DNA from: Escherichia coli
GTDB taxonomy: Bacteria > Pseudomonadota > Gammaproteobacteria > Enterobacterales > Enterobacteriaceae
Assembly (NCBI RefSeq): GCF_041886205.1
Contig: NZ_CP169029.1
DNA length: 64,000 nt
Reading direction: 5' to 3' (one strand)
Position 1 is the stretch's first letter. Each line of letters begins with the position of its first letter. The notes below the pieces were generated by a model. It was given only the letters and a program-made list of their open reading frames with translations. It searched no databases and was not told where the DNA came from. Positions 13,557 to 64,000 of the stretch are shown here, piece by piece. A program made the translations under genes and the position numbers.

Positions 13557-13978
13557 CCTCGCGCATACAGCCGGGCAGTGACGTCATCGTCTGCGCGGAA
13601 ATGGACGAACAGTGGGGCTATGTCGGGGCTAAATCGCGCCAGCGCTGGCTGTTTTACGCGTATGACAGGCTCCGGAAGACGGTTGTTGCGCACGTATTCG
13701 GTGAACGCACTATGGCGACGCTGGGGCGTCTTATGAGCCTGCTGTCACCCTTTGACGTGGTGATATGGATGACGGATGGCTGGCCGCTGTATGAATCCCG
13801 CCTGAAGGGAAAGCTGCACGTAATCAGCAAGCGATATACGCAGCGAATTGAGCGGCATAACCTGAATCTGAGACAGCACCTGGCACGGCTGGGACGGAAG
13901 TCGCTGTCGTTCTCAAAATCGGTGGAGCTGCATGACAAAGTCATCGGGCATTATCTGAACATAAAACACTATCAATAA
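13475..13978 (+). CDS. insB: IS1 InsB reading frame (expressed as InsAB' transposase by -1 frameshift)
   Basis: 167-aa ORF recognised as IS1 InsB. Confidence 0.88.
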
Positions 13979-14202
13979 GTTGGAGTCATTACCCCGCTTC
14001 CTGTGCCGACAGGACCGGCACTCGTCCATTAATACGAGGTGGTTTTACAGGTTTCATTGTTAATTCCTGATTCAGGTGTGATTTTCCCTACGCCAGATGG
14101 AGAATTAGCGCACAGAGACTCACGAAATATTTTTATTAAATACGGTTAACTATATTTTTTTTAGTTCGGCGGGGGAGGGTATTCCCGCCGAAATATTATT
14201 GC

Positions 14203-17141: not shown

Positions 17142-17361
17142 AGCTCCTTGCTGAAAGATTATTTCGTTACCGTACGTATTGTTCTCCGACGGTTTACATA
17201 ATTACTATACTGAAGATGATTATCCCTGGGTATATGGCATAAAGTTTATGTTTCCAGGAATATTGCATGTCATAGTTTGTTTTTGATCGCGATTTTCCTT
17301 AGTTAGCGCAGAAAGAGTTATTTATCCGTAAGATCTTGCATGACATGAAAAGAATATTGCA

Positions 17362-42517: not shown

Positions 42518-42903
42518 TGTTACTTACCTGTACGCATTCTTTCGAATTTAGTGTTATCAGATAAGTTTGGTTGAGATTTTTAGAATTTGAGAAATTTCAG
42601 ACAGGGATGAAAAGGGCGCTAACCGCCCTTGATTAAATTCTGTCAGGCGAGTTTTGCCTGATTGATTTGACTCAGTGGCTCATTGACATCGAAAACTTTG
42701 GCGACAACTTCCTCAACGCCGAGATTTTTAAGTCGGGCAGTATGTTTTTCCAGATAGGCAAGGGCGCTTTTTTCATCAGTAAAAAGATAGATCCCACCGG
42801 CTTCGTGGTTCTTTTCACTTTCTGTCCATACCTTCCACAGAAAACCAGGTTCCTGATTAATTGAACCGCCCCGGGTTTCCTGGAGAGTGTTTTATCTGTG
42901 AAC

Positions 42904-43794
42904 TCAGGCTGCCAGATCATCGTTTCCGATGGAAGCATAATAAGCTTTTTCTGCTTCTGCCGGAGGAGTATGGCCCAGCCTTTCCAGCAATCGTCGATTG
43001 TTATACCAGTCCACCCACGTGAGTGTGGCCAGTTCCACTTCTGCACGGTTTTTCCAGCTCTTACGGTGTATTACCTCCGCTTTGTAAAGACCATTGATGC
43101 TCTCCGCCATCGCGTTGTCATACGAGTCGCCTGTACTTCCTGTTGATGCCAGTAATCCGGCTTCCTTAAGCCGCTGTGTGTAGGCCAGCGATACATACTG
43201 AGAACCTTTATCACTGTGATGGACCGTGCCGGACGGTCGACGGGCCCATAACGCCTGCTCCAGTGCATCCAGCACGAATGTCGTTTCCATGGACGATGAG
43301 ACCCGCCACCCCACGATGTATCCGGCAAACACATCAATGATGAACGCCACATAGACGAAGCCCCGCCATGTGCTGACGTAAGTAAAATCAGCCACCCACA
43401 GCTGGTCAGGTCGTTCTGCCACGAACTGACGGTTTACGCGGTCGCCTGCGGCAACGGCTTTCCGGCTGATGGTCGTACGGACCTTTTTACCCCGGAGAAC
43501 ACCGGCAAGTCCCATAACCGCCATGAGACGTGCCACAGTGCATCTGGCCACTCTGATACCTTCCCGTAACAACTGACGCCAGACTTTACGCACACCGTAT
43601 ACCTTGTGATTTTCATCGTATACGCGCTGTATCTCTTTCTTCAGCCAGTCATCGCGCTGCGCACGGGCACTGCGTTTATCCGGATGATGTCGCTGTTGCT
43701 GACAGTGGTAATACGTTGACGGGGCAATATGCAGTTCGCTGCATAGCGGTCCGACCCCGTACTGCTCACGCAGCTTATCCAGCAGTGGCATCAT
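42904..43794 (-). CDS. IS3-family transposase OrfB (DDE integrase core)
   Basis: 296-aa ORF; overlaps orfA 3' end at an A-run consistent with -1 frameshifting. Confidence 0.88.
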
Positions 43795-44117
43795 TTTTTC
43801 CAGAGGCGGTCGAACTCCGCCTTCGCAAAATAAGCGGAAGCCTGGCGAAGGATATCGTTACTGCGGCGCAGTTCACGATTTTCACGTTCCAGCTCTTTCA
43901 GACGCTGACGTTCAGCGGTGGTGAGCCCTCCATCACCGCCCCCGGTATCCCGCTCATGCTGGCGAACCCAGACACGCAGAGTCTCCGGCGTACAGCCAAT
44001 CTTTGGAGCAATGGAACAAATTGTCGCCCATTGTGAGTCATATTCGCTCTGACTTTCCAGAACCATACGGACTGCCCGTTGACGGACTTCGGGGGAAAAA
44101 CGAGTATTTTTAGTCAT
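43791..44117 (-). CDS. IS3-family transposase OrfA (HTH)
   Basis: 108-aa [26 protein letters not shown]... Confidence 0.88.
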
Positions 44118-44368
44118 CCTGTTTACCTCTTTCTCAGGAAGTTTAGTCTCCAGGATTCCCGGGGCGGTTCAAATCGACTCAGCAAGCGGTTTAAGCTGCT
44201 CAGCCATTGCGTCGCCAAATGGGCCATTAAAAGCAAAATGAAGTTGTAACAAAGTTGCCATAGCGATTCTCCTTCTGATAACGCATACGAAGACAGTGTA
44301 AATCTTTTAACGTATTGGATACAGAGAAGAAACAGAGGGAAAAAGGAGAAGACCAGATTAAGAAAATC

Positions 44369-44445
44369 TGGTGCGTCCGAGTGGACTCGAACCACCGACC
44401 CCCACCATGTCAAGGTGGTGCTCTAACCAACTGAGCTACGGACGC
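44369..44445 (-). tRNA. valW: tRNA-Val (GAC anticodon)
   Basis: Reverse complement reads GCGTCCGTAGCTCAGTTGGTTAGAGCACCACCTTGACATGGTGGGGGTCGGTGGTTCGAGTCCACTCGGACGCACCA; valV/valW assignment by position; +/-1 nt. Confidence 0.9.
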
Positions 44446-44449
44446 AGGA

Positions 44450-44526
44450 TGGTGCGTTCAATTGGACTCGAACCAACGACCCCCACCATGTCAAGGTGGT
44501 GCTCTAACCAACTGAGCTATGAACGC
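44450..44526 (-). tRNA. valV: tRNA-Val (GAC anticodon)
   Basis: Reverse complement reads GCGTTCATAGCTCAGTTGGTTAGAGCACCACCTTGACATGGTGGGGGTCGTTGGTTCGAGTCCAATTGAACGCACCA; +/-1 nt. Confidence 0.9.
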
Positions 44527-44833
44527 AACGTTGTAGGTGACAACGGGGACGAATATTAGCGGCAGAGTGGGAAGGTGGCAAGAGGCAAAACGTAATTTTC
44601 TGCGCTATTTCGACCGTTTGCAGAGCTTTTAAGCAAATTGGCTATATTTTGTTGATTTGCAAGGGCGATTTTTATTCAGGATCGCATTTACATCTGATAC
44701 AACCCAATAATTCGTGTATCAGAGTTTAAACAGAGTTGTTTGCCACCATCTCAAATCTGTCGTGGATAAATCCTCCGTAGCCTTTACACTTAGGTAGCAA
44801 TAAAGGCACACAGATGCAGCAAAGGAATAAATC

Positions 44834-46090
44834 ATGGGATCTGATGCGAAAAACTTGATGAGCGACGGGAATGTGCAAATTGTTAAGACCGGCGAGGTCA
44901 TTGGCGCGACGCAACTTACTGAAGGCGAGTTGATTGTTGAAGCTGGCGGAAGAGCCGAAAATACCGTGGTCACGGGGGCTGGCTGGTTGAAAGTGGCAAC
45001 CGGTGGGATCGCCAAATGTACACAGTACGGTAACAATGGCACGCTATCGGTCAGCGACGGTGCCATTGCCACAGATATTGTTCAGTCCGAGGGAGGCGCA
45101 ATTAGTCTCTCTACGCTCGCTACGGTTAATGGCCGCCATCCCGAAGGTGAATTCAGCGTTGATCAGGGTTATGCCTGCGGTTTGTTGCTGGAAAATGGCG
45201 GTAACCTGCGTGTACTGGAAGGACATCGCGCGGAAAAAATCATTCTCGATCAAGAGGGCGGCCTGTTGGTTAATGGGACAACCTCAGCGGTCGTGGTAGA
45301 TGAAGGTGGTGAATTGTTGGTGTATCCAAGTGGGGAAGCCAGCAATTGTGAGATTAATCAGGGCGGCGTTTTTATGCTGGCCGGGAAAGCCAGTGATACG
45401 TTGCTTGCTGGTGGCACCATGAATAATCTCGGTGGTGAAGACTCTGACACTATTGTTGAGAATGGATCCATTTATCGTCTGGGGACGGATGGCCTTCAGC
45501 TCTACAGTTCCGGTAAGACGCAAAACCTGTCCGTGAATGTGGGTGGTCGGGCTGAAGTGCATGCCGGTACGCTGGAAAATGCGGTAATACAAGGTGGGAC
45601 AGTGATCCTGTTGTCACCCACCAGCGCGGACGAAAATTTTGTCGTAGAGGAAGATCGCGCACCGGTTGAACTGACCGGGAGTGTTGCATTACTGGACGGC
45701 GCTTCAATGATTATTGGCTATGGCGCAGATCTGCAACAATCAACGATTACTGTACAGCAGGGCGGTGTATTGATTCTCGACGGCAGTACGGTAAAAGGTG
45801 ACAGTGTCACTTTAAATGTTGGTAACATCAATCTAAATGGCGGAAAACTGTGGCTAATCACTGGTGCGGCAACGCATGTGCAACTGAAAGTGAAACGCCT
45901 GCGCGGAGAGGGAGCGATTTGCCTGCAAACCAGTGCGAAAGAAATTTCACCTGACTTCATCAATGTGAAAGGGGAAGTTACCGGTGATATACACGTTGAG
46001 ATAACAGATGCCAGTCGGCAAACTCTGTGTAACGCACTGAAACTACAGCCAGACGAAGACGGGATTGGCGCAACGCTCCAGCCTGCGTAA
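44834..46090 (+). CDS. ydhQ: autotransporter-passenger-like (AIDA-type repeat) protein without evident beta-barrel
   Basis: 418-aa ORF, Gly/Thr/Val-rich degenerate repeats. Confidence 0.85.
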   Translation: MGSDAKNLMSDGNVQIVKTGEVIGATQLTEGELIVEAGGRAENTVVTGAGWLKVATGGIAKCTQYGNNGTLSVSDGAIATDIVQSEGGAISLSTLATVNGRHPEGEFSVDQGYACGLLLENGGNLRVLEGHRAEKIILDQEGGLLVNGTTSAVVVDEGGELLVYPSGEASNCEINQGGVFMLAGKASDTLLAGGTMNNLGGEDSDTIVENGSIYRLGTDGLQLYSSGKTQNLSVNVGGRAEVHAGTLENAVIQGGTVILLSPTSADENFVVEEDRAPVELTGSVALLDGASMIIGYGADLQQSTITVQQGGVLILDGSTVKGDSVTLNVGNINLNGGKLWLITGAATHVQLKVKRLRGEGAICLQTSAKEISPDFINVKGEVTGDIHVEITDASRQTLCNALKLQPDEDGIGATLQPA

Positions 46091-46130
46091 AAACACAGGC
46101 GCAACCCGTGAAGGTTGCGCCTTGTCTTTA

Positions 46131-47525
<1,395 letters not shown>

Positions 47526-47718
47526 TTATATGAGAGACTAAAAAGCCGCCTGAATGGGCAGCAAAAAGAAGAAGCAGGGGAAATTCAGTCTATTGTAGCG
47601 AGGATTTATTAATTCTCCAGTGAAAAAATAGTCATTCTTACCCCTTCACTGGTAAGGGCGTTTGCCACCTGCTATTGTGCTGAACAGAATGTCTTAACTG
47701 ATTTCAGGAGTTGTAAGT

Positions 47719-48360
47719 ATGTTTACGGGGATTGTACAGGGCACCGCAAAACTGGTGTCGATTGACGAGAAACCAAATTTTCGCACACATGTGGTGGAGT
47801 TACCCGACCACATGCTGGACGGTCTGGAAACCGGTGCTTCCGTGGCGCATAACGGTTGCTGCCTGACCGTGACGGAAATTAACGGCAACCATGTCAGTTT
47901 TGACCTGATGAAAGAAACGTTGCGCATTACCAATCTTGGCGATTTAAAAGTGGGGGATTGGGTAAACGTTGAGCGTGCGGCGAAATTCAGTGATGAAATT
48001 GGCGGACACTTAATGTCAGGTCATATTATGACTACCGCTGAAGTAGCGAAAATATTAACCTCGGAAAATAATCGCCAGATCTGGTTTAAAGTCCAGGATA
48101 GTCAGTTGATGAAATATATTCTGTACAAAGGATTTATTGGCATCGACGGTATTAGCCTGACCGTCGGCGAAGTCACGCCAACGCGTTTTTGCGTCCATTT
48201 AATTCCGGAAACACTGGAACGCACGACTCTTGGGAAGAAAAAACTTGGCGCACGCGTCAACATTGAAATCGATCCACAAACTCAGGCAGTGGTAGATACG
48301 GTAGAACGTGTGCTGGCGGCACGAGAAAATGCCATGAATCAACCAGGTACAGAAGCCTGA
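47719..48360 (+). CDS. ribC: riboflavin synthase
   Basis: 213-aa [24 protein letters not shown]... Confidence 0.93.
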
Positions 48361-48399
48361 TCTGAAATCGCCCCCGGAGAGGGGGCGATAGAATAGCCT

Positions 48400-49548
48400 T
48401 TAGCGAGCCACTCGAAGGCCGTTTTCAACACCGCGTGAGAACACGACCTGCCAGAGCTGAATATCACGGGCGCGGAAAGCACCTGCACAGGCATTCAGAT
48501 AATAGGTAAACATTCGTTTAAAGCGTTCACTGTAGTTATCCGCAATTTCTGGCCATGCGGCGAGGAATCGTTCATACCACGCCATCAACGTAGTATCGTA
48601 ATCAGCACCGAAGTTATGCCAGTCTTCCATCACAAAGTGGGGTTCGCTGGATTGAGCAATCTGGCGTACAGAGGGCAGGCAACCGTTCGGAAAAATATAT
48701 TTATTAATCCAGGGATCAACATTCAGATCGGTTTTTTTCGAACCGATAGTATGGAGCAGGAATATACCTTCCGGTTTCAAATTACGATCCACCACCGCAA
48801 AATAGGTATCGTAATTTTTCGGTCCGACGTGCTCGAACATCCCCACAGAAACAATACGATCAAACTGGTCGTTCAGGTCACGATAATCTTGCAGCAAAAT
48901 GGTGACATCCAGGCCTTCACAGCGTTCCTGAGCCATTTTTTGCTGTTCGGCAGAAATGGTGACGCCGACCACGCTTACGTCATAGTTAGATGCCATGTAG
49001 TGCGCCAGTCCGCCCCAGCCGCAGCCAATATCCAGTACGCGCATCCCTGGTTTTAACTGCAATTTTTCACAAATCATTTTGAGCTTCGCCTGCTGGGCAG
49101 ATTCCAGATTATCGGCATCTTTCCAGTAAGCGCAGGAATATTGCATGAAGGGATCAAGCATGCGGCTGAACAAGTCATTACCCAAATCGTAATGCTCCTT
49201 GCCGACTATCCAGGCACGTTTTTTACTCTGCAGATTGAAGAGACGAGCGCCGGCAATACGCAGCGTGTCTTTGAAATGATGGGGGAGTTGGTTCTCGAGA
49301 CCTGCGCGTAAGACTTTGCTAAAAAACATATCCAGTCGGTCACATTCCCACCAGCCATCCATATAACTTTCGCCTAACCCCAAAGAGCCTTCTTGCAGAA
49401 CGCGTTTAAAAAAATCGGGGTTTTTCACACGAATATCCGCCGGGGCAGAACCGTTAATGGCTATACCGGCACGGCTAAGTAATTCGTTGGCGATACGGTA
49501 CCAGTTGTCATCCGGTACACTGACTTCTTCTATACACGATGAACTCAT
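48400..49548 (-). CDS. cfa: cyclopropane-fatty-acyl-phospholipid synthase
   Basis: 382-aa ORF with SAM-binding motif (VLDIGCGWGG). Confidence 0.95.
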   Translation of the reverse strand: MSSSCIEEVSVPDDNWYRIANELLSRAGIAINGSAPADIRVKNPDFFKRVLQEGSLGLGESYMDGWWECDRLDMFFSKVLRAGLENQLPHHFKDTLRIAGARLFNLQSKKRAWIVGKEHYDLGNDLFSRMLDPFMQYSCAYWKDADNLESAQQAKLKMICEKLQLKPGMRVLDIGCGWGGLAHYMASNYDVSVVGVTISAEQQKMAQERCEGLDVTILLQDYRDLNDQFDRIVSVGMFEHVGPKNYDTYFAVVDRNLKPEGIFLLHTIGSKKTDLNVDPWINKYIFPNGCLPSVRQIAQSSEPHFVMEDWHNFGADYDTTLMAWYERFLAAWPEIADNYSERFKRMFTYYLNACAGAFRARDIQLWQVVFSRGVENGLRVAR

Positions 49549-49838
49549 AGTTTCTCCATCACTGGTCGGTGATCAGAACCTTAAAACAGCGTAGACGCTT
49601 TTTGGGCTTTGTGAGAAATCTCGCAGAAAAAACCGCGAGTCTATAATCCGACGTAGAACAGAGGGAAAGGAGGAACCCTTGCCGAAATGACCATCCATAG
49701 TGAGTCGGGAACGATCCTGTCCCCGTAAAAACATAATATTTATCGTAGCTTTAACAACTCGAAATTAGTATAGGCCGCTAATTTCAATCATACAACAAAA
49801 TTTTGTTAGCAGCCTAAGTATAAGTATATCGATATAGA

Positions 49839-51050
49839 TCAGTGTGATTCGCTATGAGCGACTTCGGCATTGCCATGATTCTGGCAGCCAACTTCTTCAC
49901 AACGTTGCATCATGTAACCCAGCGCGACCAGCACTACTGTTGATAACATCACGCTGGTGGTGGTGAGCAATGGCGTGCTGATACTGATCAGCCAGGAAAC
50001 TACCAGACTTGCGAGGAAGCACAGACCCAGTTGTAGAGTGTTCTGCAACGCTGCGGCGCGACCAGTTGCGTGTGGGAAGGGACGCAGCGCCTGGGCGACA
50101 ACAATAGGGTAGATCGCGCCATTGGCAATCGCCATCACACAGAATGGGATCAGAATTTCGACCAGCGACACATGGCTAATGAAGCCCGCAGCCCAGGTCG
50201 CAATGACGCTGACAGCAAACAGCACCAGCAACCACGGTAATAACTGCTTGCCTTGCCATTTCTGCAGCGCGGCGCGACAGCCATAACCACCAATCAGAAA
50301 CGCGATAGTTTGCGGGACATAACTTAAACCAATAACTGCCGGGCTGTAGCCCATTTCACTAAGGATGAACGGTGAACCGGTCAGCCATGCAAAAAAACTG
50401 GCTGAACAGGCCGCGTATATCAGCACGTTGCCGCGATAGGTTTTAGAACGTAGCAGGTCGGTAAAGGTCAGACCATCCTGACTATTGTTACGGGCCTTCG
50501 TCGTGGGTTTGAGCCAGAAAATAGGCAGAATCAGCACCACGGTAATGGCAAACAGGGTGGCGAAAATCGCTTGCCAGGAAAAATGGACCAGCAGCCAGCT
50601 TCCTAACAGAGGAGCCAGGGCCGGAGATAGACCCACCAGCGGCATGATGGTCGCAAAAATTCGGTTAACTTTCTGTGAAGGATAATAATCCGTCACTAAC
50701 GCTTGCCAGATAACCGCCGCGGCGCAGACACCCACAGCCTGTACAAAACGCAATACCAGCAGCGTAGCGGCGTTTTCTACCCACAGCATCCCCAGACTAC
50801 CTAACGCAAAAATTGTCAGGCCGATTAATAATACCGGTTTACGACCATAACGGTCGGAGAGCGGCCCCCACAGAAGCTGGGCTGCGGCAAAACCGGCAAG
50901 GAACAGACTAAGGCTGGCACTGACAGCAGACGCAGGCGTTTGCAGGTCGGCCTGTATGGCGGCGAAAGCAGGCAGATACATATCGGTTGCCAGAAAACCG
51001 AGTACGCTCAAACCCGCCAGCCAGACTAAAAATCTTTTCCCAGGTTGCAT
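49839..51050 (-). CDS. punC: MFS transporter (purine nucleoside / drug exporter family)
   Basis: 403-aa ORF recognised as YdhC/PunC. Confidence 0.88.
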
Positions 51051-51162
51051 GTATATTCTCTAAATCTCTCAATTAAACACCGCCGCAAAGTGTAGGGAGT
51101 GAAATTAGTGTTGTGAAACGGTAATATTTGATGACTGGTTTCAAAAATTTTGCAGGCAGACT

Positions 51163-52095
51163 ATGTGGTCAGAATATTCACTCGAAGTTGTTGATGCGGT
51201 AGCGCGTAATGGTAGTTTTAGCGCTGCGGCACAGGAGCTGCATCGCGTTCCTTCTGCGGTCAGCTATACCGTGCGTCAGCTGGAAGAGTGGCTGGCGGTG
51301 CCGCTCTTTGAAAGACGGCACCGTGATGTGGAACTGACCGCTGCCGGGGCGTGGTTTCTCAAAGAAGGGCGCTCTGTTGTCAAAAAAATGCAGATCACCC
51401 GCCAGCAATGTCAGCAGATAGCGAACGGCTGGCGCGGTCAGTTAGCTATCGCAGTGGATAATATTGTCAGGCCAGAACGTACACGGCAGATGATCGTTGA
51501 TTTTTATCGCCATTTTGACGACGTCGAACTTCTGGTCTTTCAGGAAGTGTTTAACGGTGTCTGGGATGCGCTTTCCGATGGGCGCGTGGAACTGGCGATT
51601 GGCGCAACACGCGCGATTCCGGTAGGCGGTCGTTATGCCTTCCGGGATATGGGGATGCTAAGCTGGAGTTGCGTTGTTGCCAGCCACCACCCGCTGGCGT
51701 TGATGGATGGCCCGTTCAGCGATGATACGTTGCGCAACTGGCCGTCGTTGGTGCGCGAAGACACCTCGCGAACGCTACCTAAACGTATTACCTGGTTGCT
51801 GGATAACCAAAAAAGAGTTGTCGTGCCTGACTGGGAATCATCGGCAACCTGTATCTCGGCAGGATTATGCATAGGGATGGTGCCAACACATTTCGCCAAA
51901 CCGTGGCTTAATGAGGGGAAGTGGGTAGCACTTGAATTGGAGAACCCCTTCCCGGATTCGGCATGTTGTCTGACATGGCAGCAAAATGATATGTCGCCTG
52001 CGTTAACCTGGCTGCTTGAGTATCTCGGCGATAGTGAGACGCTGAATAAGGAGTGGCTGCGGGAGCCGGAAGAGACTCCCGCAACGGGTGATTAA
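51163..52095 (+). CDS. punR: LysR-family transcriptional regulator
   Basis: 310-aa ORF with N-terminal HTH; divergent from punC. Confidence 0.88.
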
Positions 52096-53117
52096 CGACG
52101 ATAGTCGCGGAACGGGCCGTCAGCCACGGAGCGGCGTTCAATCAAACGCGGATGCACTTCAATGGACTGCGGTTCTTCACGTTTGTTGACGATACGATCC
52201 AACAGCATGTTGAACGCTGTTTCACCCAGCGAATCTTTTGGCTGATGGATCGTGGTCAGCGCCGGCGTAAAATAGCGCGCGTTGCGCACGTTATCATAAC
52301 CGATCAGCGAAACATCCTGCGGGACGCGCAGGCCCATTTCATCAGCAGCACAAAGTGCGCCCATTGCCATGATATCGCCACCACAGAAGACGGCAGTAGG
52401 GCGATGCGGCTGCGACAGGATTTGCTGCATGGCGCGATAACCAGATTCGGGTTCAAAGTCACCCTGCACAATCCAGCTTTCCGGCACCTTTATCATCGCT
52501 TCTTCCATCGCCTTCATAAAACCGGCAAGGCGGCCTGCGCCGGTGTTACGTTCCAGCGGGCCGGGGATGACGCCGATTTCGCGGTGGCCGCGTTCAATCA
52601 GATAACGCCCGGCCATGTAGCCGCCTTCGAACGCGTTATCAATGACCGCATCGGTGAAGTCAGCTTTTGCTTCACCCCAGTCCATGACCACCATTGGGAT
52701 ATGGCGATACTCTTCCAGCATCGCCAGCAACGGCTCTGGGTACTCAGAACACATCACCAGCAGACCATCGACGCGTTTTTGCGCCATCATCGACAGATAA
52801 GCCCGCTGTTTCTCAAGATTGTTCCACGCATTACCCAGAATCAGGGTGTAACCTTTCTGGAAGCAATTTTTTTCAACCGCTTCAATGATCTCGGCAAAAT
52901 AGGCCGCTTCGCTGCTGGTCGCCAGCAAACCGATAGACTTGGTGTGGTTAACCTTCAGGCTACGCGCCACCGCGCTAGGGGAGTAGTGTAATTCTTTAAT
53001 CGCTGCCCACACGGCGTTGCGCGTTTCTTCAGCGACGAAACGTGTTTTGTTGATCACGTGTGACACAGTTGTAGTGGAAACGTTTGCTCGTTTCGCTACA
53101 TCTTTTATTGTTGCCAT
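52092..53117 (-). CDS. purR: purine repressor (LacI family)
   Basis: 341-aa [36 protein letters not shown]... Confidence 0.96.
53075..53090. promoter_or_regulatory. PurR operator-like palindrome (CGAGCAAACGTTTCCA) inside the 5' end of purR
   Basis: Match to PurR box core GCAAACGTTT; purR is known to be autoregulated through downstream operators. Confidence 0.6.
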
Positions 53118-53161
53118 TCCATTTCACTCCAGACCCTAACTTCAGCTCCTGCAAAATCGCA

Positions 53162-53177
53162 AGGTAAACGTTTGCCT
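53162..53177. promoter_or_regulatory. PurR operator-like palindrome (AGGCAAACGTTTACCT) in the purR leader
   Basis: Match to PurR box core about 45 bp upstream of the purR start codon. Confidence 0.6.
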
Positions 53178-53415
53178 TTACACACCTTACGCACAACAAA
53201 AGTGTTGCGGTACGCCGGAAAAACGACACGGAGCGTCAGGAAGGGGTCAATGGCCAGTACGCAAATAGTGTAAGCGTGGAATTTTGGCCGATCTTGACGA
53301 AAAGGGGAAGTGGTAAAAACACTTATCATTATAAATGACGGGAGATTTTTTCATCACAGTGTGTAAAAATGCGTAATATCACTTTTTGTGTGGTAATAAA
53401 AAAGGAGAAAACTTG

Positions 53416-53505
53416 ATGAGCACCGACCTTAAATTTTCACTGGTAACAACGATTATCGTCCTCGGTTTGATCGTGGCCGTGGGTTTGACTGCCGCGCTGC
53501 ACTGA
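53416..53505 (+). CDS. ynhF: 29-aa single-TM small protein
   Basis: ATG preceded by AAAGGAGAAA RBS; translation MSTDLKFSLVTTIIVLGLIVAVGLTAALH; below the ORF-track length cutoff; +/-1 nt. Confidence 0.7.
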   Translation: MSTDLKFSLVTTIIVLGLIVAVGLTAALH

Positions 53506-53670
53506 TTTCCTCTCGAGGGAGCGCGTTCTCCCTCGCATCTCCTTCCTGTTTGTTAGCAAAATGGCAAAAGTGTTTTCTCTTTTTGTTATTTTCATTTTTT
53601 TGTGATTGCTGTCATGCTTTCGCCACTTTAATGAATATCGCGTAATGACGCGAAGAGGTGGAGATAAGGC

Positions 53671-54840
53671 ATGAAAATTAACTATCCGTTGCTGGCGCTG
53701 GCGATTGGCGCGTTTGGTATCGGGACAACGGAGTTCTCGCCAATGGGCTTATTGCCCGTCATTGCGCGCGGTGTGGATGTCTCGATTCCCGCTGCCGGAA
53801 TGTTAATCAGTGCCTATGCAGTTGGCGTAATGGTGGGCGCGCCGCTGATGACGCTTCTACTTTCTCATCGTGCCCGCCGCAGTGCGTTGATTTTCCTGAT
53901 GGCGATTTTCACGCTCGGCAACGTACTTTCCGCCATCGCGCCGGATTATATGACTCTCATGCTTTCACGCATTTTGACCAGCCTGAATCACGGAGCATTT
54001 TTTGGTTTGGGTTCAGTTGTGGCCGCAAGCGTGGTGCCAAAACATAAACAGGCCAGCGCAGTTGCCACTATGTTTATGGGGTTAACCCTGGCAAATATCG
54101 GTGGCGTGCCGGCGGCGACCTGGTTGGGTGAAACCATCGGCTGGCGGATGTCATTTCTGGCAACGGCGGGGCTGGGCGTGATTTCAATGGTAAGTCTGTT
54201 CTTCTCATTACCTAAAGGTGGTGCAGGGGCACGACCTGAAGTGAAAAAAGAGCTGGCGGTATTAATGCGTCCGCAGGTGCTGTCTGCATTGCTGACGACG
54301 GTACTGGGAGCTGGTGCAATGTTTACCCTCTACACCTATATCTCTCCGGTACTGCAAAGTATTGCCCACGCAACACCGGTGTTCGTCACGGCAATGCTGG
54401 TGCTGATTGGTGTCGGATTCTCTATCGGTAACTATCTCGGCGGCAAACTGGCAGATCGTTCAGTTAACGGCACGTTGAAAGGCTTTTTGTTGTTGTTGAT
54501 GGTGATTATGCTGGCAATCCCGTTCCTGGCCCGCAATGAGTTCGGCGCAGCTATTAGCATGGTGGTGTGGGGCGCAGCAACCTTTGCGGTCGTACCGCCG
54601 TTACAGATGCGCGTGATGCGTGTCGCCAGTGAAGCGCCAGGTCTGTCTTCATCAGTCAATATTGGTGCCTTTAATCTTGGAAATGCGCTGGGAGCAGCGG
54701 CTGGTGGTGCGGTAATTTCCGCTGGGCTGGGATACAGCTTTGTGCCGGTGATGGGGGCGATTGTCGCGGGACTGGCATTATTGCTGGTGTTTATGTCAGC
54801 CAGAAAACAACCTGAAACAGTTTGCGTTGCTAACAGCTAA
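53671..54840 (+). CDS. ydhP: MFS transporter
   Basis: 389-aa 12-TM ORF. Confidence 0.88.
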   Translation: MKINYPLLALAIGAFGIGTTEFSPMGLLPVIARGVDVSIPAAGMLISAYAVGVMVGAPLMTLLLSHRARRSALIFLMAIFTLGNVLSAIAPDYMTLMLSRILTSLNHGAFFGLGSVVAASVVPKHKQASAVATMFMGLTLANIGGVPAATWLGETIGWRMSFLATAGLGVISMVSLFFSLPKGGAGARPEVKKELAVLMRPQVLSALLTTVLGAGAMFTLYTYISPVLQSIAHATPVFVTAMLVLIGVGFSIGNYLGGKLADRSVNGTLKGFLLLLMVIMLAIPFLARNEFGAAISMVVWGAATFAVVPPLQMRVMRVASEAPGLSSSVNIGAFNLGNALGAAAGGAVISAGLGYSFVPVMGAIVAGLALLLVFMSARKQPETVCVANS

Positions 54841-54842
54841 TT

Positions 54843-54875
54843 AAACAAAAACGCAGAAGGATAACCTTCTGCGTT
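54843..54875 (-). terminator. intrinsic terminator of sodB (AACGCAGAAGG…CCTTCTGCGTT + U-run on minus strand)
   Basis: Inverted repeat between convergent ydhP and sodB. Confidence 0.7.
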
Positions 54876-54985
54876 ACAGTTGCTGACAACGTGCGATTTA
54901 TCTTGCCGAATGCGCTGTTAACGCCTCATCCGCGTTGGCATGGTAAGCGAAGCGCATTAGGCAATACTGCATTTGCCATCAGTTA

Positions 54986-55567
54986 TTATGCAGCGAGATT
55001 TTTCGCTACGAATTCCCAGTTCACCAGCGCCCAGAAGTGCTCCAGATAGCCAGGACGTGCATTGCGATAGTCGATGTAATAAGCGTGTTCCCAGACATCA
55101 ACGGTCAGCAGCGGAGTCGCATCGGTGGTCAGCGGAGTACCCGCGTTAGAGGTTGAAACGATAGCCAGTTTGCCATCGCTGTTTTTCACCAGCCAGGTCC
55201 AGCCAGAACCAAAGTTTTTGATCGCTGCATCAGTAAACTGCGCTTTGAAATCGGCAAAGCTGCCAAAAGATACGGCGATAGCTTCAGCGACTTTTCCAGT
55301 CGGTTCGCCACCGGCGTTCGGTGCCAGGCAGTTCCAGTAGAAAGTATGGTTCCAGACCTGAGCTGCGTTGTTGAATACGCCACCTTCAGAGCTGCGAATA
55401 ATCTCTTCCAGTGATTTACCTTCAAACGCGGTACCTTTAATCAGGTTGTTCAGGTTAGTGACATAAGTCTGATGGTGCTTGCCGTAGTGATACTCGATGG
55501 TTTCCGCAGAAATGTGCGGTGCCAGAGCATCTTTAGCATATGGTAGTGCAGGTAATTCGAATGACAT
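54986..55567 (-). CDS. sodB: superoxide dismutase [Fe]
   Basis: 193-aa [35 protein letters not shown]... Confidence 0.97.
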
Positions 55568-55694
55568 TGCTACTCTCCTTTATTATTAATTTGCATACGT
55601 ACAATAGCCTTATTGTGCGTATGGATAGGGTAGCAAATTAAAAGGTGAGACAAAAGATGAACTTACCCTGTTGCCGTAACAACAGGGTAAAGTT

Positions 55695-56510
55695 TTAGCG
55701 AAGTGTTTTTGGGGTCATTACCCGACGAGCGCCAACATAGTGGCGCTGCCAGTAGTCTTCACTGAGAGAAGTGATTTGAATTTCCTGACCTGTGCGCGGT
55801 GACTGAATAAATTTGCCGTTGCCGACATACACGCCGACATGATCGGCTGTGCCGCGTCCCTGAGTACGGAAAAAGACCAGGTCGCCGTTTTTCAGTTCAC
55901 TACGTTCGATTGGCGCTGCATCACGCAGGTGATACATTTCATTCGCCGTACGCGGAATACGAATTTTCACCAAATCTTTATAAGCGTAATAAACCAGGCC
56001 GCTGCAATCAAAACCGGTACGCGGTGAGCTGCCACCCCAACGATATGGCTTACCAATTTGCTGCATCAGTTTATTCATTGCCACTTTCGTAGCTTTTTGC
56101 ACCTTCGCTTTGTGCGCGTCGGCAAGAGTTCCTGACGCGGCATTTTTGACTTTCACACAATGCGATTTATAGCCCTTACGTTTGGTACACTTTTCGGTAA
56201 AGCTGGCTGAGGCCGTTTTATTGACGGCGTGTTTGCTGCGAGTTTTGGCGTTTTTAGAAGCGGTAATGGAAGATTTTTTAACGGAAGAAGCGGTTTTGCT
56301 TTTGGTCGTACTTTTACTGGCGGCTTTTTTCGCTGTTTTCTGGGTCTTTTTGGTGGTTGCCGTGCTTTTCTTTTTATCTGCTTTTTTGGTGATATGAGTG
56401 GTAGCAGAACTCTCCCTGGCTTGCTTTGAAGCATGGGCCATAGGCGTTAAAGGCAGGGTGGTAAAAAGTAAAGCACAGAGCGTGATCGAAATACGGTTTA
56501 TCCGCGCCAC
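55695..56510 (-). CDS. mepH: NlpC/P60 peptidoglycan DD-endopeptidase with Lys/Thr/Ser-rich low-complexity linker
   Basis: 271-aa ORF with signal peptide; C-terminal NlpC/P60 domain (DCSGLVYYAY). Confidence 0.88.
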   Translation of the reverse strand: MARINRISITLCALLFTTLPLTPMAHASKQARESSATTHITKKADKKKSTATTKKTQKTAKKAASKSTTKSKTASSVKKSSITASKNAKTRSKHAVNKTASASFTEKCTKRKGYKSHCVKVKNAASGTLADAHKAKVQKATKVAMNKLMQQIGKPYRWGGSSPRTGFDCSGLVYYAYKDLVKIRIPRTANEMYHLRDAAPIERSELKNGDLVFFRTQGRGTADHVGVYVGNGKFIQSPRTGQEIQITSLSEDYWQRHYVGARRVMTPKTLR

Positions 56511-56843
56511 TGAGCGTCCCTCTGTTAAGGCAGGTCTATCATGCCTGCGTCTGATTTACAAAACTTGATGATTCTAATGCATAGAAGAAGAGAAAGTTAA
56601 TAGCTTTTATTGTTAAAAAATACGTTTCGTTGGCGAGCGCAAAAAAATGCAGCAGTGAAAGCTAAAAATGGTTATAAATACGCCAGTTTGCCGGCATCAG
56701 AGAAGAAACGAATATTTGAAATGCAACAAATAGAGCAAAGGGATAAAATAGCAAAAGCGTGATGAAAATGTTATTTTCCGATGCCGCACTGACCCGCTAC
56801 AATGTCAGATTACTGCCGTAAAGAAGTTTGAGGAAGCAAGACA

Positions 56844-57191
56844 ATGAGCACCACTATCGAAAAAATCCAACGCCAGATTGCTGAAAACCCGATCCTGCTG
56901 TACATGAAAGGTTCACCGAAACTGCCGAGCTGCGGTTTCTCTGCCCAGGCAGTCCAGGCGCTTGCCGCATGTGGCGAACGTTTTGCCTATGTTGATATTC
57001 TGCAGAATCCGGACATTCGTGCGGAACTGCCGAAATATGCTAACTGGCCGACCTTCCCGCAACTGTGGGTTGACGGCGAGCTGGTAGGCGGTTGTGATAT
57101 CGTGATCGAAATGTATCAGCGTGGCGAATTGCAGCAGCTGATCAAAGAAACTGCCGCTAAATACAAGTCTGAAGAGCCGGACGCGGAATAA
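56844..57191 (+). CDS. grxD: monothiol glutaredoxin Grx4
   Basis: 115-aa ORF with CGFS active site. Confidence 0.96.
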   Translation: MSTTIEKIQRQIAENPILLYMKGSPKLPSCGFSAQAVQALAACGERFAYVDILQNPDIRAELPKYANWPTFPQLWVDGELVGGCDIVIEMYQRGELQQLIKETAAKYKSEEPDAE

Positions 57192-57205
57192 TCCGTCTCG
57201 CAATA

Positions 57206-57240
57206 CTGACGGATGCGAACGGGCATCCGTCAGTCCTTTC
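57206..57240 (+). terminator. intrinsic terminator after grxD (CTGACGGATGC…GCATCCGTCAG + T-rich tail)
   Basis: Perfect 11-bp inverted repeat seen in sequence. Confidence 0.7.
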
Positions 57241-57241
57241 T

Positions 57242-60200
57242 CTATCCCCAATCTAGCCCTTGTGGCGAACTTGAAAATCCCGCCTCACGCAGCAACGTAA
57301 ACATCGGCGTTTGCCGGACCGGTAGATCATTCACTTCTGTTAGCGTAAAGCGCAGCCGTGGTTCGCGACGCAGTGCGGTAGTCAGCGCGTGGAAAATCTC
57401 TGGGGCGAGTAATTCCTCTTTTTCCTGCCAGACCAGCATTTTTTTGCCGCCTTGCGCCAGATAGAGTAACAATTTGCCGCCAGAAACGACCACCAGCGCA
57501 CCCGCCCGACGCGTTGGAACCAGCGTTGCCGGATGTGCAGGCCAGGGCAGAAGATTTCCCCACACATTAGCCGGATCGTTGGCGGAGAGCGCCACTGGTG
57601 TATAGTGGCGCGTTTGCGCGGTTTGTGTCGCCAGGTCACGCAATCGATCAATAGTCAGACGTTCAGCGAATTGCGCGCCACCCAGACCTTCTACAAAACG
57701 ACCTCGCATAATTCGCCCGGAGTCTTCCATACTTCGACAAAGCGTTTGCATCGATGGAAACCCGCCAGGGATATTTTCGGCTATCACCGCCTGACGACTG
57801 ATGATGCCGTAGCGGTCGAGCATATTTTCCGCCAGCGCCAGCATCCTTTCGGTATCGTTTAGTGGCTCCACCTGCAATAACGACCAGCGTCCAGCCAGAT
57901 TTGGTGTGTTGTAAGATACCCGCGGCGAGACGGGTTGCGCATAGACAGGACGTCCACGACGAGCCCGGTGACTGCGGCGAGTTGAGGTGCGTGCGTTGGA
58001 ACTGCTGCGGGTGAGGGCGCGTAACGGTGCCCAAATGTCGCTGGTGATGACGCCTTGCCAGACCAGCGCCCATAACGCCTCTTGCAGGGCAGAGAGATCA
58101 ACCGATTCGCCGATTTTGTCGCGTATCCGTTGGCTGATTTGTTGTGCAAACCAGGCTCCTCCGTCAGCCAGAACAGCGACTATCGCTTGTTGCAGCGCCG
58201 AACGATTCGCCTGATCCGCTTCGGCGGGAGTGAACGATTCTGCAGCATATTCCTGTAGATGCAGTGCCACCAGGCCGTCATCTTCACCCAGTTTTTTTTG
58301 CCCCGACCAGATAACCGCACCGGTTGCCAGTAATTCATCGAGCATTTCTGACGAATAGTCGCGTACGCGGGCAGGCAGGATCTGGCTTTCCCAGAGTGAG
58401 GCGGGTAAACCGACTCCGGCAAGCTGTTCGATCACCCGCATCACGCCATCTACGCCCTCATAAACGCCTGGCGATGTTGAGGCAAAGAGCGCCGGGCTAC
58501 CATCGGTGGCGGGTAATACGCCCTGACGTTCCAGCAGCAATCGCGCATAGGTCGTGGCTGCAACGGGACGCGTCGCTTCTCTGGCAGCTTGCAGCGAGCG
58601 CAAACGCAGACGACGAAATACTTCATCGCTCACCCAGATGTCTTGTTGCAGATTCATCACCAGACCCTGTTCACGCAGTTGCTGAAGCTGCTCTTCGACA
58701 ATGGCAATACCGAGACTAAACTCATGAGCCAGTTGTTCAGCCGTGACCAGAGCATGAGCCCGGAGATAGCGCAGAAAGAGGTCGCGAAGCGGGTAACTGA
58801 CTCTATGTAAATAAATCTCTGGCAATGACTCTGGTAGTCGTACGCCGAGGGCATCACGCAGCCTGGCGGCATCATCCATACAGGCAAGACGCTCCTGTCC
58901 GCTAATCATCGCCGGGAAGATTCGTTTTACTGCAAGAAGATTTTCCAGATACGACGCAACCTCTTCACTGCTGCCTGTATGCCGTTGCGCCAGGTCTTCA
59001 ACGGTCATTGGCCCCAGTTCGCGCAGCAGGTCGAACAATCCTTCTTCACCTTTCGCTCTTCTGCCAGGAGCCAGTCGTTGCAACTCTTCTTCCACCTGGC
59101 GAATGACCTGCGGGTCGAGTAATTCCCCCGGATCGACCTGTCCGAGTAGATTGCGCAGTAACTCGCTGTCCAGCGACAGTACGGATGCCCGGCGCTCTGC
59201 CAGCGGGGCGTCGCTCTGGTACATAAATTCCGCGACATAGCCGAACAATAAACTGGTGGCGAAAGGCGAGGGCGTAGTAGTCGTTACATCGGATATTTGA
59301 ATTTCGCCACCGTTCAGGCGAAGCATCAAACGTTCCAGTGCGGGAAGATCATAAACATCTTGCAGACATTCGCGTAGGGTTTCGAGAATGACCGGAAAAT
59401 CCGGATATCCCTGAGCGATTTCCAGCAACTGACTGGCGCGCAGCCGTTGTTGCCAAAGCGGGGTGCGATGGCCCGGCGTGCGGCCCGGCATTAATAATGC
59501 CCGCGCGGCGCATTCGCGAAAACGGGCGGCGAAAAGTGCCGAACTGCCTACCGCCTCGCGGACAATTTGCAGCAACTTTTCTGGTTCAAACAAAAAAATC
59601 GCGGCATCGGGCAATTTACCATCGGTGTCAGGAATACGTGCAACAATGCCGTCATCACTGGCGACCACCGACGCGTCAGCGCCCCATAGGGCATGTATTC
59701 GCCCGGCAATCGCCAGCGCCCAGGGTTCATGCACCCGTCTTCCATAGGGAGAGTGCAAAATAATACGCCAGTCACCAATTTCATCACGGCACCGTTCGAG
59801 GACCAGATGGCGACTCCCCGGAACGATGCCCGTCGCGTTGCGCTGCTCCTCAATCAACCCCTGAATATTGGCGATCGTATTTTCTTCTGCCAGCCACGGG
59901 GGAATAGTCCCGGAAAAGAACGCGCCATCCGCCAGCAAATGAAGAAAATCGCCGATCATCTCGCCTAATTCAGCCGGACGTCCGTTACCTTCACCACGCC
60001 AGAAGGGGAGCCGGGCAGAACGACCCGGAGCAGGAGTCACAATCACCTGATCGCGGGTGATTTGCTGGATCCGCCATGAGGTAGCGCCGAGAGTGATAAT
60101 GTCGTTCACCCGCGACTCATATACCATCTCCTCATCCAGTTCACCCACCCGCCGCGAACCGGCCTTTTCTTCACCTTCGGGTAATAACACGCTATACATG

Positions 60201-61567
60201 CCACGATCCGGAATGGTGCCGCCGCTGGTAACCGCCAACAATTGAGCGCCAGGTCGGGCGGTCAATATCCCGGTCTCCCTGTTCCAGACCAGTTTGGGGC
60301 GAAAAGCAGAAAAATCGCCAGAGGGATAGCGCCCGGAAAGCATATCCAGCGTGGCGTCAAAAACACGTCTTGGCAGATCTTTCCACGGTGCGGCACGGCG
60401 TACGCGGGAGTACCATTCGTCTACCTGTAATGCATCCATCGCCGCGGCGGCAACGGTTTGCTGCGCAAGGACGTCGAGAGGATTATGCGGTGGTGTCAGG
60501 TTTTCCAGCCTGCCTGCGAACATACACTCTACAATGACTGTGGAATCGACTAAATCACGCCGGGTACGGGGGAAAAACAGCCCTTTAGATACACCGCCAA
60601 CCTGATGTCCGGCGCGACCAATGCGTTGTAACCCACTGGCAACAGAAAGCGGCGTTGCCACCTGAATCACCAGATCCACCGCGCCCATATCAATCCCCAG
60701 TTCAAGACTGGAGGTTGCGACCACGCAGCGTAATTCACCCGATTTCAGCGCCTGTTCGGTGATTGCTCGTTGTTCTTTAGAGACGGAGCCGTGGTGTGAG
60801 CGGGCAATAAAAACGTCGCTACTTTGTACACGGTTAGAGGTTGCGCCGGAGGTCGACTCGAAATGGGCCGCATCAACGGCGATAGACGGGGAACGCTGTA
60901 AGCGTGCGGCGTAAAGCTCATTTAATCGTGCCGTCAGTTTTTCCGCCAGCCCCCGCGAATTAGTAAAGACAATGGTCGAGCGATGGCGCAACACTTCATC
61001 AAGGATGCCCGTTTCAATATATGGCCAGATGGAGCCTTCCCGGCCGGCATGGCTGTCTTCGCCAGTGCCGCTGGCGACCGATGAGACATCATCCATATTG
61101 GCGACCGGTACGACAATCCGTATCTGCGGATGACGCATTGCGGGCGGGTTGACTACCGTAACCGGGCGATCGCCACCAAGAAATGCTGCCACATCGCTGG
61201 CTGAGCGCACAGTGGCAGAAAGGCCAATTCGCTGTGCTGAGGTGTGGAGCAGCGCATCGAGCCGCTCCAGACTTAACGCCAGATGCGCACCACGTTTACT
61301 GCCCGCTACCGCGTGGACTTCATCAATAATTACCGTTTCGACGCCGCGTAGCGTTTCGCGCGCGCGGGAGGTCAGCATCAGATAGAGTGATTCGGGTGTG
61401 GTGATCAGAATATCCGGCGGATTACGGGTGAGTTTGCTGCGTTCCTGTGCAGGCGTATCGCCAGTACGGATCCCTACGCGAAGATTGACTTCCGTTTCGC
61501 CGCGCCGCTGAAAAGCGGCGCACGAAAAACGCGAAAGCGTTTCACGATAAATGCGAAAACAACTGTT
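57242..61567 (-). pseudogene. lhr: ATP-dependent helicase Lhr, 5'-truncated (lacks N-terminal region with helicase motif I)
   Basis: Track ORF 57242..61378 (1378 aa) begins just before motif II (IIDEVHAV); frame stays open upstream to a stop at ~61568 with no ATG/GTG/TTG; Lhr in K-12 is about 1538 aa; yniB starts at 61690. Confidence 0.8.
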
Positions 61568-61689
61568 TCACGGAAAGGCATAATGGTTAAACACCCGGTT
61601 CTGGCGCATATAACTGAACGAAGTACACGACAAAAAAATATGTCACAGGTAAACTAAGTGAAACGACGCGTCTTAATCAAGGAGAACTC

Positions 61690-62226
61690 ATGACGTATCA
61701 ACAAGCTGGACGCATTGCTGTTTTGAAAAGGATTTTGGGTTGGGTGATTTTTATACCTGCATTGATCTCTACATTGATTTCTTTGCTGAAATTTATGAAT
61801 ACCCGACAGGAAAACCAGGAAGGCATTAATGCGGTCATGCTCGACTTTACTCATGTCATGATCGATATGATGCAGGCGAATACGCCTTTTTTGAATCTGT
61901 TCTGGTATAACTCCCCGACGCCCAATTTTAATGGTGGCGTGAACGTTATGTTCTGGGTGATTTTCATCCTGATTTTTGTCGGACTGGCGTTCCAGGATTC
62001 CGGTGCCCGGATGAGTCGCCAGGCGCGCTTCTTGCGGGAAGGTGTTGAAGATCAACTCATTCTGGAAAAAGCCAAAGGGGAAGAGGGGCTAACGCGTGAA
62101 CAAATTGAGTCCCGTATTGTTGTTCCGCACCATACTATTTTCCTGCAGTTTTTCTCACTGTATATCCTGCCGGTTATTTGTATTGCTGCAGGTTATGTGT
62201 TCTTTTCTCTGCTTGGGTTTATTTAA
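61690..62226 (+). CDS. yniB: inner-membrane protein YniB
   Basis: 178-aa ORF with RBS AAGGAG; MTYQQAGRIAVLKRILGWVIF... Confidence 0.85.
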   Translation: MTYQQAGRIAVLKRILGWVIFIPALISTLISLLKFMNTRQENQEGINAVMLDFTHVMIDMMQANTPFLNLFWYNSPTPNFNGGVNVMFWVIFILIFVGLAFQDSGARMSRQARFLREGVEDQLILEKAKGEEGLTREQIESRIVVPHHTIFLQFFSLYILPVICIAAGYVFFSLLGFI

Positions 62227-62266
62227 TCAAAAGGCCGCACAGAGCGGCCATTATCTTCAACCCATA

Positions 62267-63127
62267 TCATGCTGCTAATAATCTATCCAGTGACTGCTGA
62301 GCAATAACCAAATGCTGACCGCCAAATAACCTTGCACGATTTAACAGCGTGTAGAGTTGGTAAACCGGTTGACGTTCAAGGAAATCGGCAGGTAGCGGGG
62401 ATACTGACTGATAGCCGTCATAGATTTGTGGCGGCTGTTCAGTATGCAGCGGTAACATCGCCAGGTCGCACTCTCGGTCACCCCAGTAGCAGGCCGGGTC
62501 GAAAATGTACGGGCCATCCGGACCCAGCGCACAGTTGCCGGACCATAAATCGCCGTGCAACAGAGAAGGCTGCGGTTGATGCGAGGCCAGACGCTGCTGA
62601 ATATGCTCGACGATGGCGTCGATATTGCCGAAAGCGATCCCTTTCTCTGCTGCCAGTTCCAACTGCCAGCCAATCCGTTGTTCAGCAAAAAACGTTGACC
62701 AGCGACGTTGCCAGGTGTTGGGCTGTGGAGTTGTGGAGAGCGAGTTATCAAAATCGAGGCCAAATTGTGGTTGGTCACTCCATTGATGTAAACGCGCAAT
62801 TTGCTGACCAAGAATAAATGCGCTATGCGCTTCCAGCGGACGAGGTGGGAGATAATCCATCACCAGAAAACTGTAGTCACGGTCAGCGCCTACTGCCCAA
62901 ACCTTAGGCACGGTGACGGTTTTACTACGCGACAGTAACTCCAGTTGGTCGGCTTCGGCGGTAAAACCGGGAAGCAGTTCCCTTTCATCACATTTGACGA
63001 AAAAGTCATGTCCTGCATAGCGCAAATGCCATGCGGCATGGACTTCTCCGCCAGGCAGTTCATTACGCAGTTCGATTTCGCCTTCGCCTAACTGCTCGCT
63101 CAAAAGACGACTGATTGCCTGCCACAT
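62267..63127 (-). CDS. yniA: fructosamine/ketosamine kinase-family protein
   Basis: 286-aa ORF recognised as YniA. Confidence 0.88.
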   Translation of the reverse strand: MWQAISRLLSEQLGEGEIELRNELPGGEVHAAWHLRYAGHDFFVKCDERELLPGFTAEADQLELLSRSKTVTVPKVWAVGADRDYSFLVMDYLPPRPLEAHSAFILGQQIARLHQWSDQPQFGLDFDNSLSTTPQPNTWQRRWSTFFAEQRIGWQLELAAEKGIAFGNIDAIVEHIQQRLASHQPQPSLLHGDLWSGNCALGPDGPYIFDPACYWGDRECDLAMLPLHTEQPPQIYDGYQSVSPLPADFLERQPVYQLYTLLNRARLFGGQHLVIAQQSLDRLLAA

Positions 63128-63232
63128 GATGTCTCTCCCATGTTGTCTGCCAGATCATAAGGTTAGCGCAAGAATGCGGTGTAAAAACACGAGCTAACGC
63201 ACACCACAGACTGATTATTGCCCAAAAACCAT

Positions 63233-63523
63233 TTATTTTCTGTTGCTATTCCATTCCTCCCAGGTCGTGATGGTGATTTCAGGATCTTTGCCGGTTGCAC
63301 TTTGGGTAAGCCCCGAAACCAGTTCTCTAATTTCTTCTTCACTTTGGGTACTGATAAGTCCAAAAGTGTTAGTCCCCAGCTCTTGGATATTTCCCTCATC
63401 ATCCGTCATGGTGAGCAAAAAACCGTCGCGAGTCAGGTAATTATTCAACTCGTTAATTTCAGTCAATGTATCCTCATGCAACATGACGGTTATGACATAA
63501 CGGACAAGATCGCCACTGGCCAT
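63233..63523 (-). CDS. ydiZ: uncharacterised protein YdiZ
   Basis: 96-aa ORF MASGDLVRYVITVMLHEDTL... Confidence 0.8.
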   Translation of the reverse strand: MASGDLVRYVITVMLHEDTLTEINELNNYLTRDGFLLTMTDDEGNIQELGTNTFGLISTQSEEEIRELVSGLTQSATGKDPEITITTWEEWNSNRK

Positions 63524-63623
63524 AGTTCACCCCTTTGTTATCACATGACTTTTGAGCATAGTCGGAGAAACGCGTTGCCGACAGGTTGGTGGTGATTCCC
63601 CCAATGCTGGGGGAATGTTTTTG

Positions 63624-64000
63624 TTAGCGGGAAAGGTAAGCGTAAATTTTTTGCGTATCGTCATGGGAGCACAGACGTGTTCCCTGATTGAGTGTGGCTG
63701 CACTCCCTGCAGCTACGCCAAAACGGACCATCTCTTCAAGAGAGGCATTTTCTGCCAGTTTCAGTGTCATCGCGCCGACCATGCTGTCACCAGCGCCAAC
63801 GGTACTCTGGCTTTTCACCGGTGGTGGCACCACCTGAATGCAGTTTTCACTATCAACACCCAGCGCTCCTTGTGGACCAAGGGAAACGACAACCCGTTTG
63901 GCCTTGCCGCTATTAACGATTTCCTGCGCGGCTTTGCGGACATCGTCTGGCTGGGTGAGTTCGCGATTCACCAGCGCACTGAGTTCTTTTTGGTTAGGCT
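63624..64000 (-). CDS. pfkB: 6-phosphofructokinase II (3' part; 5' end beyond window)
   Basis: Frame open to the window edge; C-terminal sequence ...GAGDSMVGAMTLKLAENASLEEMVRFGVAAGSAATLNQGTRLCSHDDTQKIYAYLSR. Confidence 0.85.
   Translation of the reverse strand, partial: PNQKELSALVNRELTQPDDVRKAAQEIVNSGKAKRVVVSLGPQGALGVDSENCIQVVPPPVKSQSTVGAGDSMVGAMTLKLAENASLEEMVRFGVAAGSAATLNQGTRLCSHDDTQKIYAYLSR

Follow-up and report, generated by a model that had tools for sequence, protein, structure and literature searches.

When MuA transposase is used for tagmentation, the 5' end of the target DNA becomes attached to the CA-3' terminus of a Mu-end strand, so that a read from a rapid nanopore kit consists of leader, barcode, Mu end, and insert, in that order. 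The read-start adapter of the Oxford Nanopore (ONT) rapid-barcoding kits (SQK-RBK) is accordingly made up of the Rapid Adapter leader, GCTTGGGTGTTTAACC, a 24-nt barcode, and the 50-mer of the Mu R1-R2 region. The ONT rapid kits are MuA-transposase based, and the SQK-RBK114 MuA cargo carries GCTTGGGTGTTTAACC as its barcode-flanking sequence (bioRxiv 10.64898/2026.04.18.719403). The top strand of the ONT adapter, GGCGTCTGCTTGGGTGTTTAACCTTTTTTTTTTAATGTACTTCGTTCAGTTACGTATTGCT, contains the leader, and a run of ten T residues (T10) precedes AATGTACTTCG (PMC11533379). The sequence AATGTACTTCGTTCAGTTACGTATTGCT is printed in the literature as an ONT read-start adapter, and adapters in the middle of reads are described there as a recognized sign of chimeric nanopore reads.

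The window analyzed here is a 64,000-nt stretch of Escherichia coli DNA in which a 5'-truncated lhr gene appears next to yniB. An initial annotation, based on the sequence alone, described lhr as fused to the region upstream of yniB, proposed a tandem duplication, a circularization, or a translocation as the origin of the join, and listed an assembly chimera as a further possibility. It is this last proposal that agrees with our results, because an ONT adapter sits in the join. We conclude with high confidence that the junction is an assembly artifact, and that positions 61509-61646 are an untrimmed ONT rapid-barcoding adapter marking a chimeric join. The observations that carry this conclusion are the adapter parts that were identified and their order, the position of the Mu CA directly against lhr, the perfect flanks, and the normal synteny of a strain whose flanks are identical to those of the window. 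The description of lhr as fused to yniB upstream DNA needs revision, since only the 43 bp at 61647-61689 belong to that region, and the 138 bp at 61509-61646, between lhr and the yniB side, are foreign. The features of the junction are listed in Table 1.

Table 1. Features at the junction of lhr and yniB, in window coordinates
Feature	Position	Strand	Remarks
lhr, codon 117 (third base) through stop codon	57242..61508	-	Up to 61508, full identity (100%) with many E. coli lhr genes
50-bp phage Mu right-end R1-R2 (MuA transposome transferred strand)	61509..61560	-	Identified by Mu identity
24-nt barcode slot, ATTATGCCTTTCCGTGAAACAGTT	61561..61584	-	The one block that varies in the alignment, with a conserved block on either side
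ONT barcode-flanking core GGGTGTTTAACC, from GCTTGGGTGTTTAACC	61585..61596	-	Exact, unique in window
Garbled link between cargo and sequencing adapter	61597..61610	-	Expected ...CGTATTGCT+GCTT, observed TATGCGCCAGAACC
ONT sequencing-adapter leader core TGTACTTCGTTCAGTTA	61611..61627	-	Exact, unique in window; part of AATGTACTTCGTTCAGTTACGTATTGCT
Noisy zone: adapter T-run (A7 on + strand) and badly called end of "read 1"	61628..61646	-	Several differences from 6EVA and K-12
yniB upstream DNA (43 bp, 61647-61689), yniB, yniA, ydiZ/ghoS, partial pfkB	61647..64000	+	Native

Local BLAST comparison with positions 1,725,001-1,815,000 of the E. coli K-12 genome aligned window positions 1-61508 with K-12 1,788,868 down to 1,729,437, two insertions breaking an otherwise colinear match, and window positions 61633-64000 with K-12 1,809,291 down to 1,806,923. 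The first cleanly native base on the yniB side is 61647, which corresponds to K-12 1,809,277. BLAST could therefore place the breakpoint, as the initial annotation had anticipated, with lhr ending at 61508 and native sequence resuming at 61647, but the microhomology for which it was also to be searched was absent. The blocks that flank the junction have the same mutual orientation as in K-12, and the layout originally read from the window, aroH to the truncated lhr followed by yniB to pfkB, is accurate, both segments sharing one orientation relative to K-12. In K-12, the lhr break (1,729,437) and the yniB-side point (~1,809,277-1,809,291) are ~79.85 kb apart by BLAST, with rnt as the upstream neighbor of lhr and hxpB as that of yniB. 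This distance and the position of rnt bear out the ~80 kb and the gene order that had been stated for K-12, and with such a separation lhr and yniB are not natural neighbors in that strain.

The same arrangement is found in another strain. Strain 6EVA is identical to the window at 17,337 of 17,337 positions on the lhr side (44172-61508), and at 2,354 of 2,354 positions on the yniB side (61647-64000), where strain wlxctx60 is identical to the window as well. In 6EVA, the two break points are ~79.8 kb apart, and the rnt-lhr and hxpB-yniB neighborhoods are both intact; thus, a strain with flanks identical to those of the window keeps the ordinary arrangement. A 1.1-kb query spanning the junction splits in every E. 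coli genome, its lhr part matching at 100% up to 61508 and then ending, and the junction is missing from all 5,426 complete E. coli genomes, in the sense that no location covers at least 80% of this query. The insert at 61509-61646 has no counterpart at the locus in any E. coli genome searched. A natural allele of the yniB-hxpB spacer was also considered for this sequence and rejected, because no E. coli genome matches positions 61561-61632, and native sequence is present only from 61647.

On the lhr side, window position 61508 corresponds to nucleotide 351 of the gene. The missing part amounts to 116 codons plus two nucleotides, which falls within the ~100-160 codons estimated initially, and it includes motif I as had been supposed (GSGKT, residues 54-58); the DEVH motif at residue 179 is kept. 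The minus-strand open reading frame that remains, 57242..61378, starts at an internal ATG and encodes 1378 amino acids. Past the GCCGC at the break, native lhr reads CGCCGTTCATCGG and the window reads TGAAAAGCGG / TGAAAAGCGGCGCACG. Beyond this point, the open frame is closed by an in-frame TGA at 61570..61568, and it offers no start codon before that stop. The stop had been correctly noted at about 61568, and it is now seen to lie within the 24-nt barcode of the insert. On the other side, yniB is on the plus strand at 61690..62226, beginning exactly where it had been placed.

When the insert is read on the minus strand, its order is TGTACTTCGTTCAGTTA ... GGGTGTTTAACC, 24 nt, and GTTTTCGCATTTATCGTGAAACGCTTTCGCGTTTTTCGTGCGCCGCTT(TT)CA, with each block unique in the window. 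It agrees with the expected ONT composite at 115 of 128 positions. Like the SQK-RBK adapter, the insert has all four parts in the correct order and orientation, and its Mu CA borders the target DNA without a gap. Unlike that adapter, the window copy has two extra T residues in CGCTTCA, a garbled joint between leader and cargo, and one mismatch to the presumed rapid barcode 26, and errors are confined to these adapter positions. A further difference is that the adapter belongs at the start of a read, whereas the window copy is internal to assembled sequence, with 61.5 kb on one side of it and at least 2.35 kb to the right edge of the window on the other.

The Mu part is the most readily recognized. 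It finishes ...CGCTT(TT)CA directly on lhr, with a 2-nt homopolymer insertion, and its terminal TG/CA at 61509-61510 lies against lhr position 61508. Positions 61513-61560 are identical to the right end of phage Mu (AF083977 36715..36668) at 48 of 48 nucleotides, and a 31-mer of this Mu end gives an exact match that is unique in the window. The barcode slot, ATTATGCCTTTCCGTGAAACAGTT, matches 23 of the 24 nucleotides of ACTATGCCTTTCCGTGAAACAGTT, which we take to be ONT rapid barcode 26. No printed source for the window barcode was found in the literature searched with its forward, reverse-complement, and partial forms. A spacing of exactly 24 nt separates the core GGGTGTTTAACC from the Mu end, and the first four nucleotides of GCTTGGGTGTTTAACC are garbled. 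Streptomyces records described below are also garbled at the equivalent position between leader and cargo, and the garbled stretch at 61597..61610 may reflect the click-chemistry linkage of the two parts. The leader core is preceded by seven T residues (T7) in read orientation.

A search of a plasmid collection matched the whole insert, at 74-84% identity, with the very ends of records for linear Streptomyces plasmids. Six Streptomyces records were aligned with the reverse complement of the window. In this alignment, a conserved ...GTACTTCGTTCAGTTAT..GGGTGTTTAACC is followed by a record-specific 24-nt block, then by an invariant GTTTTCGCATTTATCGTGAAACGCTTTCGCGTTTTTCGTGCGCCGCTTCA, and then by unrelated DNA. 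The variable 24-mers of four Streptomyces records are the ONT barcodes BC06, BC07, BC10, and BC11, which have been tabulated as such (PMC9229804). The Mu block of the window is identical to the conserved block at the termini of these records. Termini with adapter remnants are found in public nanopore assemblies, for example in Streptomyces sp. NBC_01463 plasmid CP109469.1, in S. althioticus NZ_CP109216.1, and in contigs of S. thinghirensis HM3. The window and these termini share one composite, in which the flanks are conserved and the ONT barcode varies. In the Streptomyces records, the adapter is followed by a few bases from another molecule and is located tens of bases from the end of the record, where it merely lengthens the contig. 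In the window, by contrast, it makes synteny seem broken and a gene seem truncated.

When the adapter pattern was sought in the GTDB representative genomes, six Streptomyces contigs were identified, in four of which the adapter is no more than 30 bases from the start of the locus. Adapter remnants therefore exist as a class of artifact in public data, and an internal join of the kind seen here is less common. The barcode-specific form of the pattern had no match in JGI metagenomes.

The order of the parts suggests how the join would have arisen. A first library molecule, read on the minus strand, would have run through pfkB, ydiZ, yniA, and yniB, and would have finished in the yniB-hxpB spacer. 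Some 20 noisy bases would have come next, then a T-run, and then the complete start adapter of a second molecule, which would begin at lhr nucleotide 351, the presumed MuA cut site, and continue toward aroH. On this basis, window positions 61647-64000 are the 3' end of the first read, and lhr at 57242..61508 is the beginning of the second in read orientation. The two molecules presumably went through the same pore one after the other and were stored as a single read. A full sequencing-adapter leader in the middle argues for the concatenation of two separately adapted molecules rather than for their physical ligation. The assembler would then have joined loci ~79.8 kb apart by means of the chimeric read, and polishing would have mended the flanks and left the adapter as it was. 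Errors in the adapter probably escaped polishing because only the chimeric read or reads cover it. Perfect flanks around an error-bearing adapter are the signature of an unsplit chimeric read in a polished assembly, and we would expect the join to be supported by a single read, with no extra read depth.

A genuine rearrangement, as favored by the initial annotation, would mean that the ~80-kb lhr-yniB segment had been duplicated in tandem, or had given rise to a circle by excision or amplification, through short homology or a hairpin. The geometry is that expected of such an event: the two segments share one K-12-relative orientation and are joined head to tail at points ~80 kb apart, as at tandem-duplication or circularization junctions in E. 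coli. Moreover, the join creates a perfect 8-bp inverted repeat, GCGCCGCT-GAAA-AGCGGCGC, at 61502-61521. Nevertheless, we regard a genuine rearrangement as very improbable. Between the two loci lie 138 bp of synthetic library adapter with its sample barcode and leader, which cannot be chromosomal, and a complete ONT adapter exists only in sequencing libraries; this applies equally to duplication, circularization, and translocation. Nor do the data support an origin by recombination, whether through short homology or at a local secondary structure, because the join is neither direct nor based on microhomology: none is present at the break between native lhr and the yniB spacer. An IS element, which had rightly been reported as missing from the junction, is not found there either. 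As for the inverted repeat, it is a product of the Mu end itself and the GC-rich lhr flank. Finally, a chromosomal junction of this kind has no representative among the 5,426 complete genomes.

The sequence at 61502-61521 resembles some natural Mu junctions. Two natural Mu prophage junctions show similar flanks, in which ...GCCGC is joined to TGAAGCGGC, and these hits were chosen for their flank-extended BLAST match. The likeness is probably a coincidence combined with the target preference of MuA. We rejected the idea that GC-rich flanks beside natural Mu ends are meaningful, because the BLAST ranking favored flank-extended matches and Mu prefers CSG-type targets.

Another explanation is that the two halves of the window come from different strains or samples, through cross-sample or contaminant chimerism. 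Comparison with strain LHM10-1 points in this direction, since the left flank is 99.96-100% identical to that strain and the yniB-pfkB flank is only ~99.4% identical outside the noisy zone. However, both flanks are 100% identical to 6EVA, so that one 6EVA-like genome accounts for both, and the contrast seen with LHM10-1 then fits ordinary recombinational mosaicism between lineages. A two-strain origin is therefore highly unlikely, and it would leave the join an artifact all the same.

The perfect Mu right end, with its TG exactly at the lhr break and a GC-rich target as in natural prophages, could also be taken to indicate that phage Mu, or a laboratory mini-Mu, inserted into lhr and that a Mu-mediated rearrangement then brought in yniB. 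Indeed, as at phage Mu attR (AF083977 36668-36717), 48 of the 50 terminal base pairs are present without a mismatch, and TG/CA abuts host DNA. This proposal is extremely improbable, however. Past bp 50, natural Mu prophages run on through TTTAGCTTTCGCG / TTTAGCTTTCGCGCTTCAAATG into mom/com, whereas the Mu homology of the window stops after 50 bp, and the sequence that adjoins it consists of the ONT barcode, the barcode-flanking sequence, and the ONT leader. In addition, and unlike attR in a prophage, the window has only one Mu end, with no Mu DNA beyond R1-R2 and no phage genes. It also lacks a 5-bp target duplication, the far side of the insert being the yniB upstream region and not the remainder of lhr. 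Also extremely improbable is a real ~80-kb duplication or circle whose junction the assembler happened to represent by an adapter-bearing chimeric read, because the adapter cannot be genomic and an unlikely coincidence of breakpoints would thus be needed.

If the junction is an untrimmed adapter, as we conclude, then the apparent fusion of lhr and yniB is present in the sequence but is not a feature of the organism. The junction is without biologic importance, and its value is as a data-quality flag for the record. The false features of this record are a synteny break and a 5'-truncated lhr, which could be called as a pseudogene or as a 1378-aa protein, and the record possibly also carries a false ~80-kb duplication or circular contig. 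More generally, when an assembly contains a perfect 50-bp match to Mu attR, an ONT rapid-kit adapter should be checked for before a Mu insertion is called. A screen for GGGTGTTTAACC-N24-GTTTTCGCATTTATCG detects adapter remnants in public genomes.

Several other observations were made in passing. In the Streptomyces "complete" linear plasmids of the NBC_ series and in the S. thinghirensis HM3 contigs, the ONT adapter at the ends is followed by bases of another read, and the annotated termini are therefore not true replicon ends. Two deposited phage genomes contain similar Mu-end stretches. Streptococcus phage 36L (PQ621707.1, bases 1-32) opens with 32 bp identical to Mu R1-R2 and the ONT adapter, and Proteus phage vB_PmiA_PM1 (PQ065999.1, 42009-42057) has 49 bp of Mu R1-R2 near its end, under a "hypothetical protein". 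These stretches may be adapter remnants as well.

The window also contains insertion sequences at a distance from the junction. One is an IS1 of 768 bp at 13226-13993, with ends GGTGATGCTGCCAACTTACTG ... GGAGTCATTACC and an 8-bp direct repeat, CCGCTTCC; it is located in the 5' end of ydiF (K-12 ~1,775,639-1,775,650) and is absent from K-12. The other is an IS3-family element of 1,310 bp at 42862-44171, whose ends (TGAACCGCCCCGGGTTTCC...) are of the IS629/IS1203 type and which is accompanied by a 3-bp duplication, AAT. It lies in ydhR (K-12 ~1,746,784-1,746,789) and is absent from K-12, 6EVA, and LHM10-1; in other strains, an "IS3-like element IS1203 family transposase" is annotated in the ydhR region.
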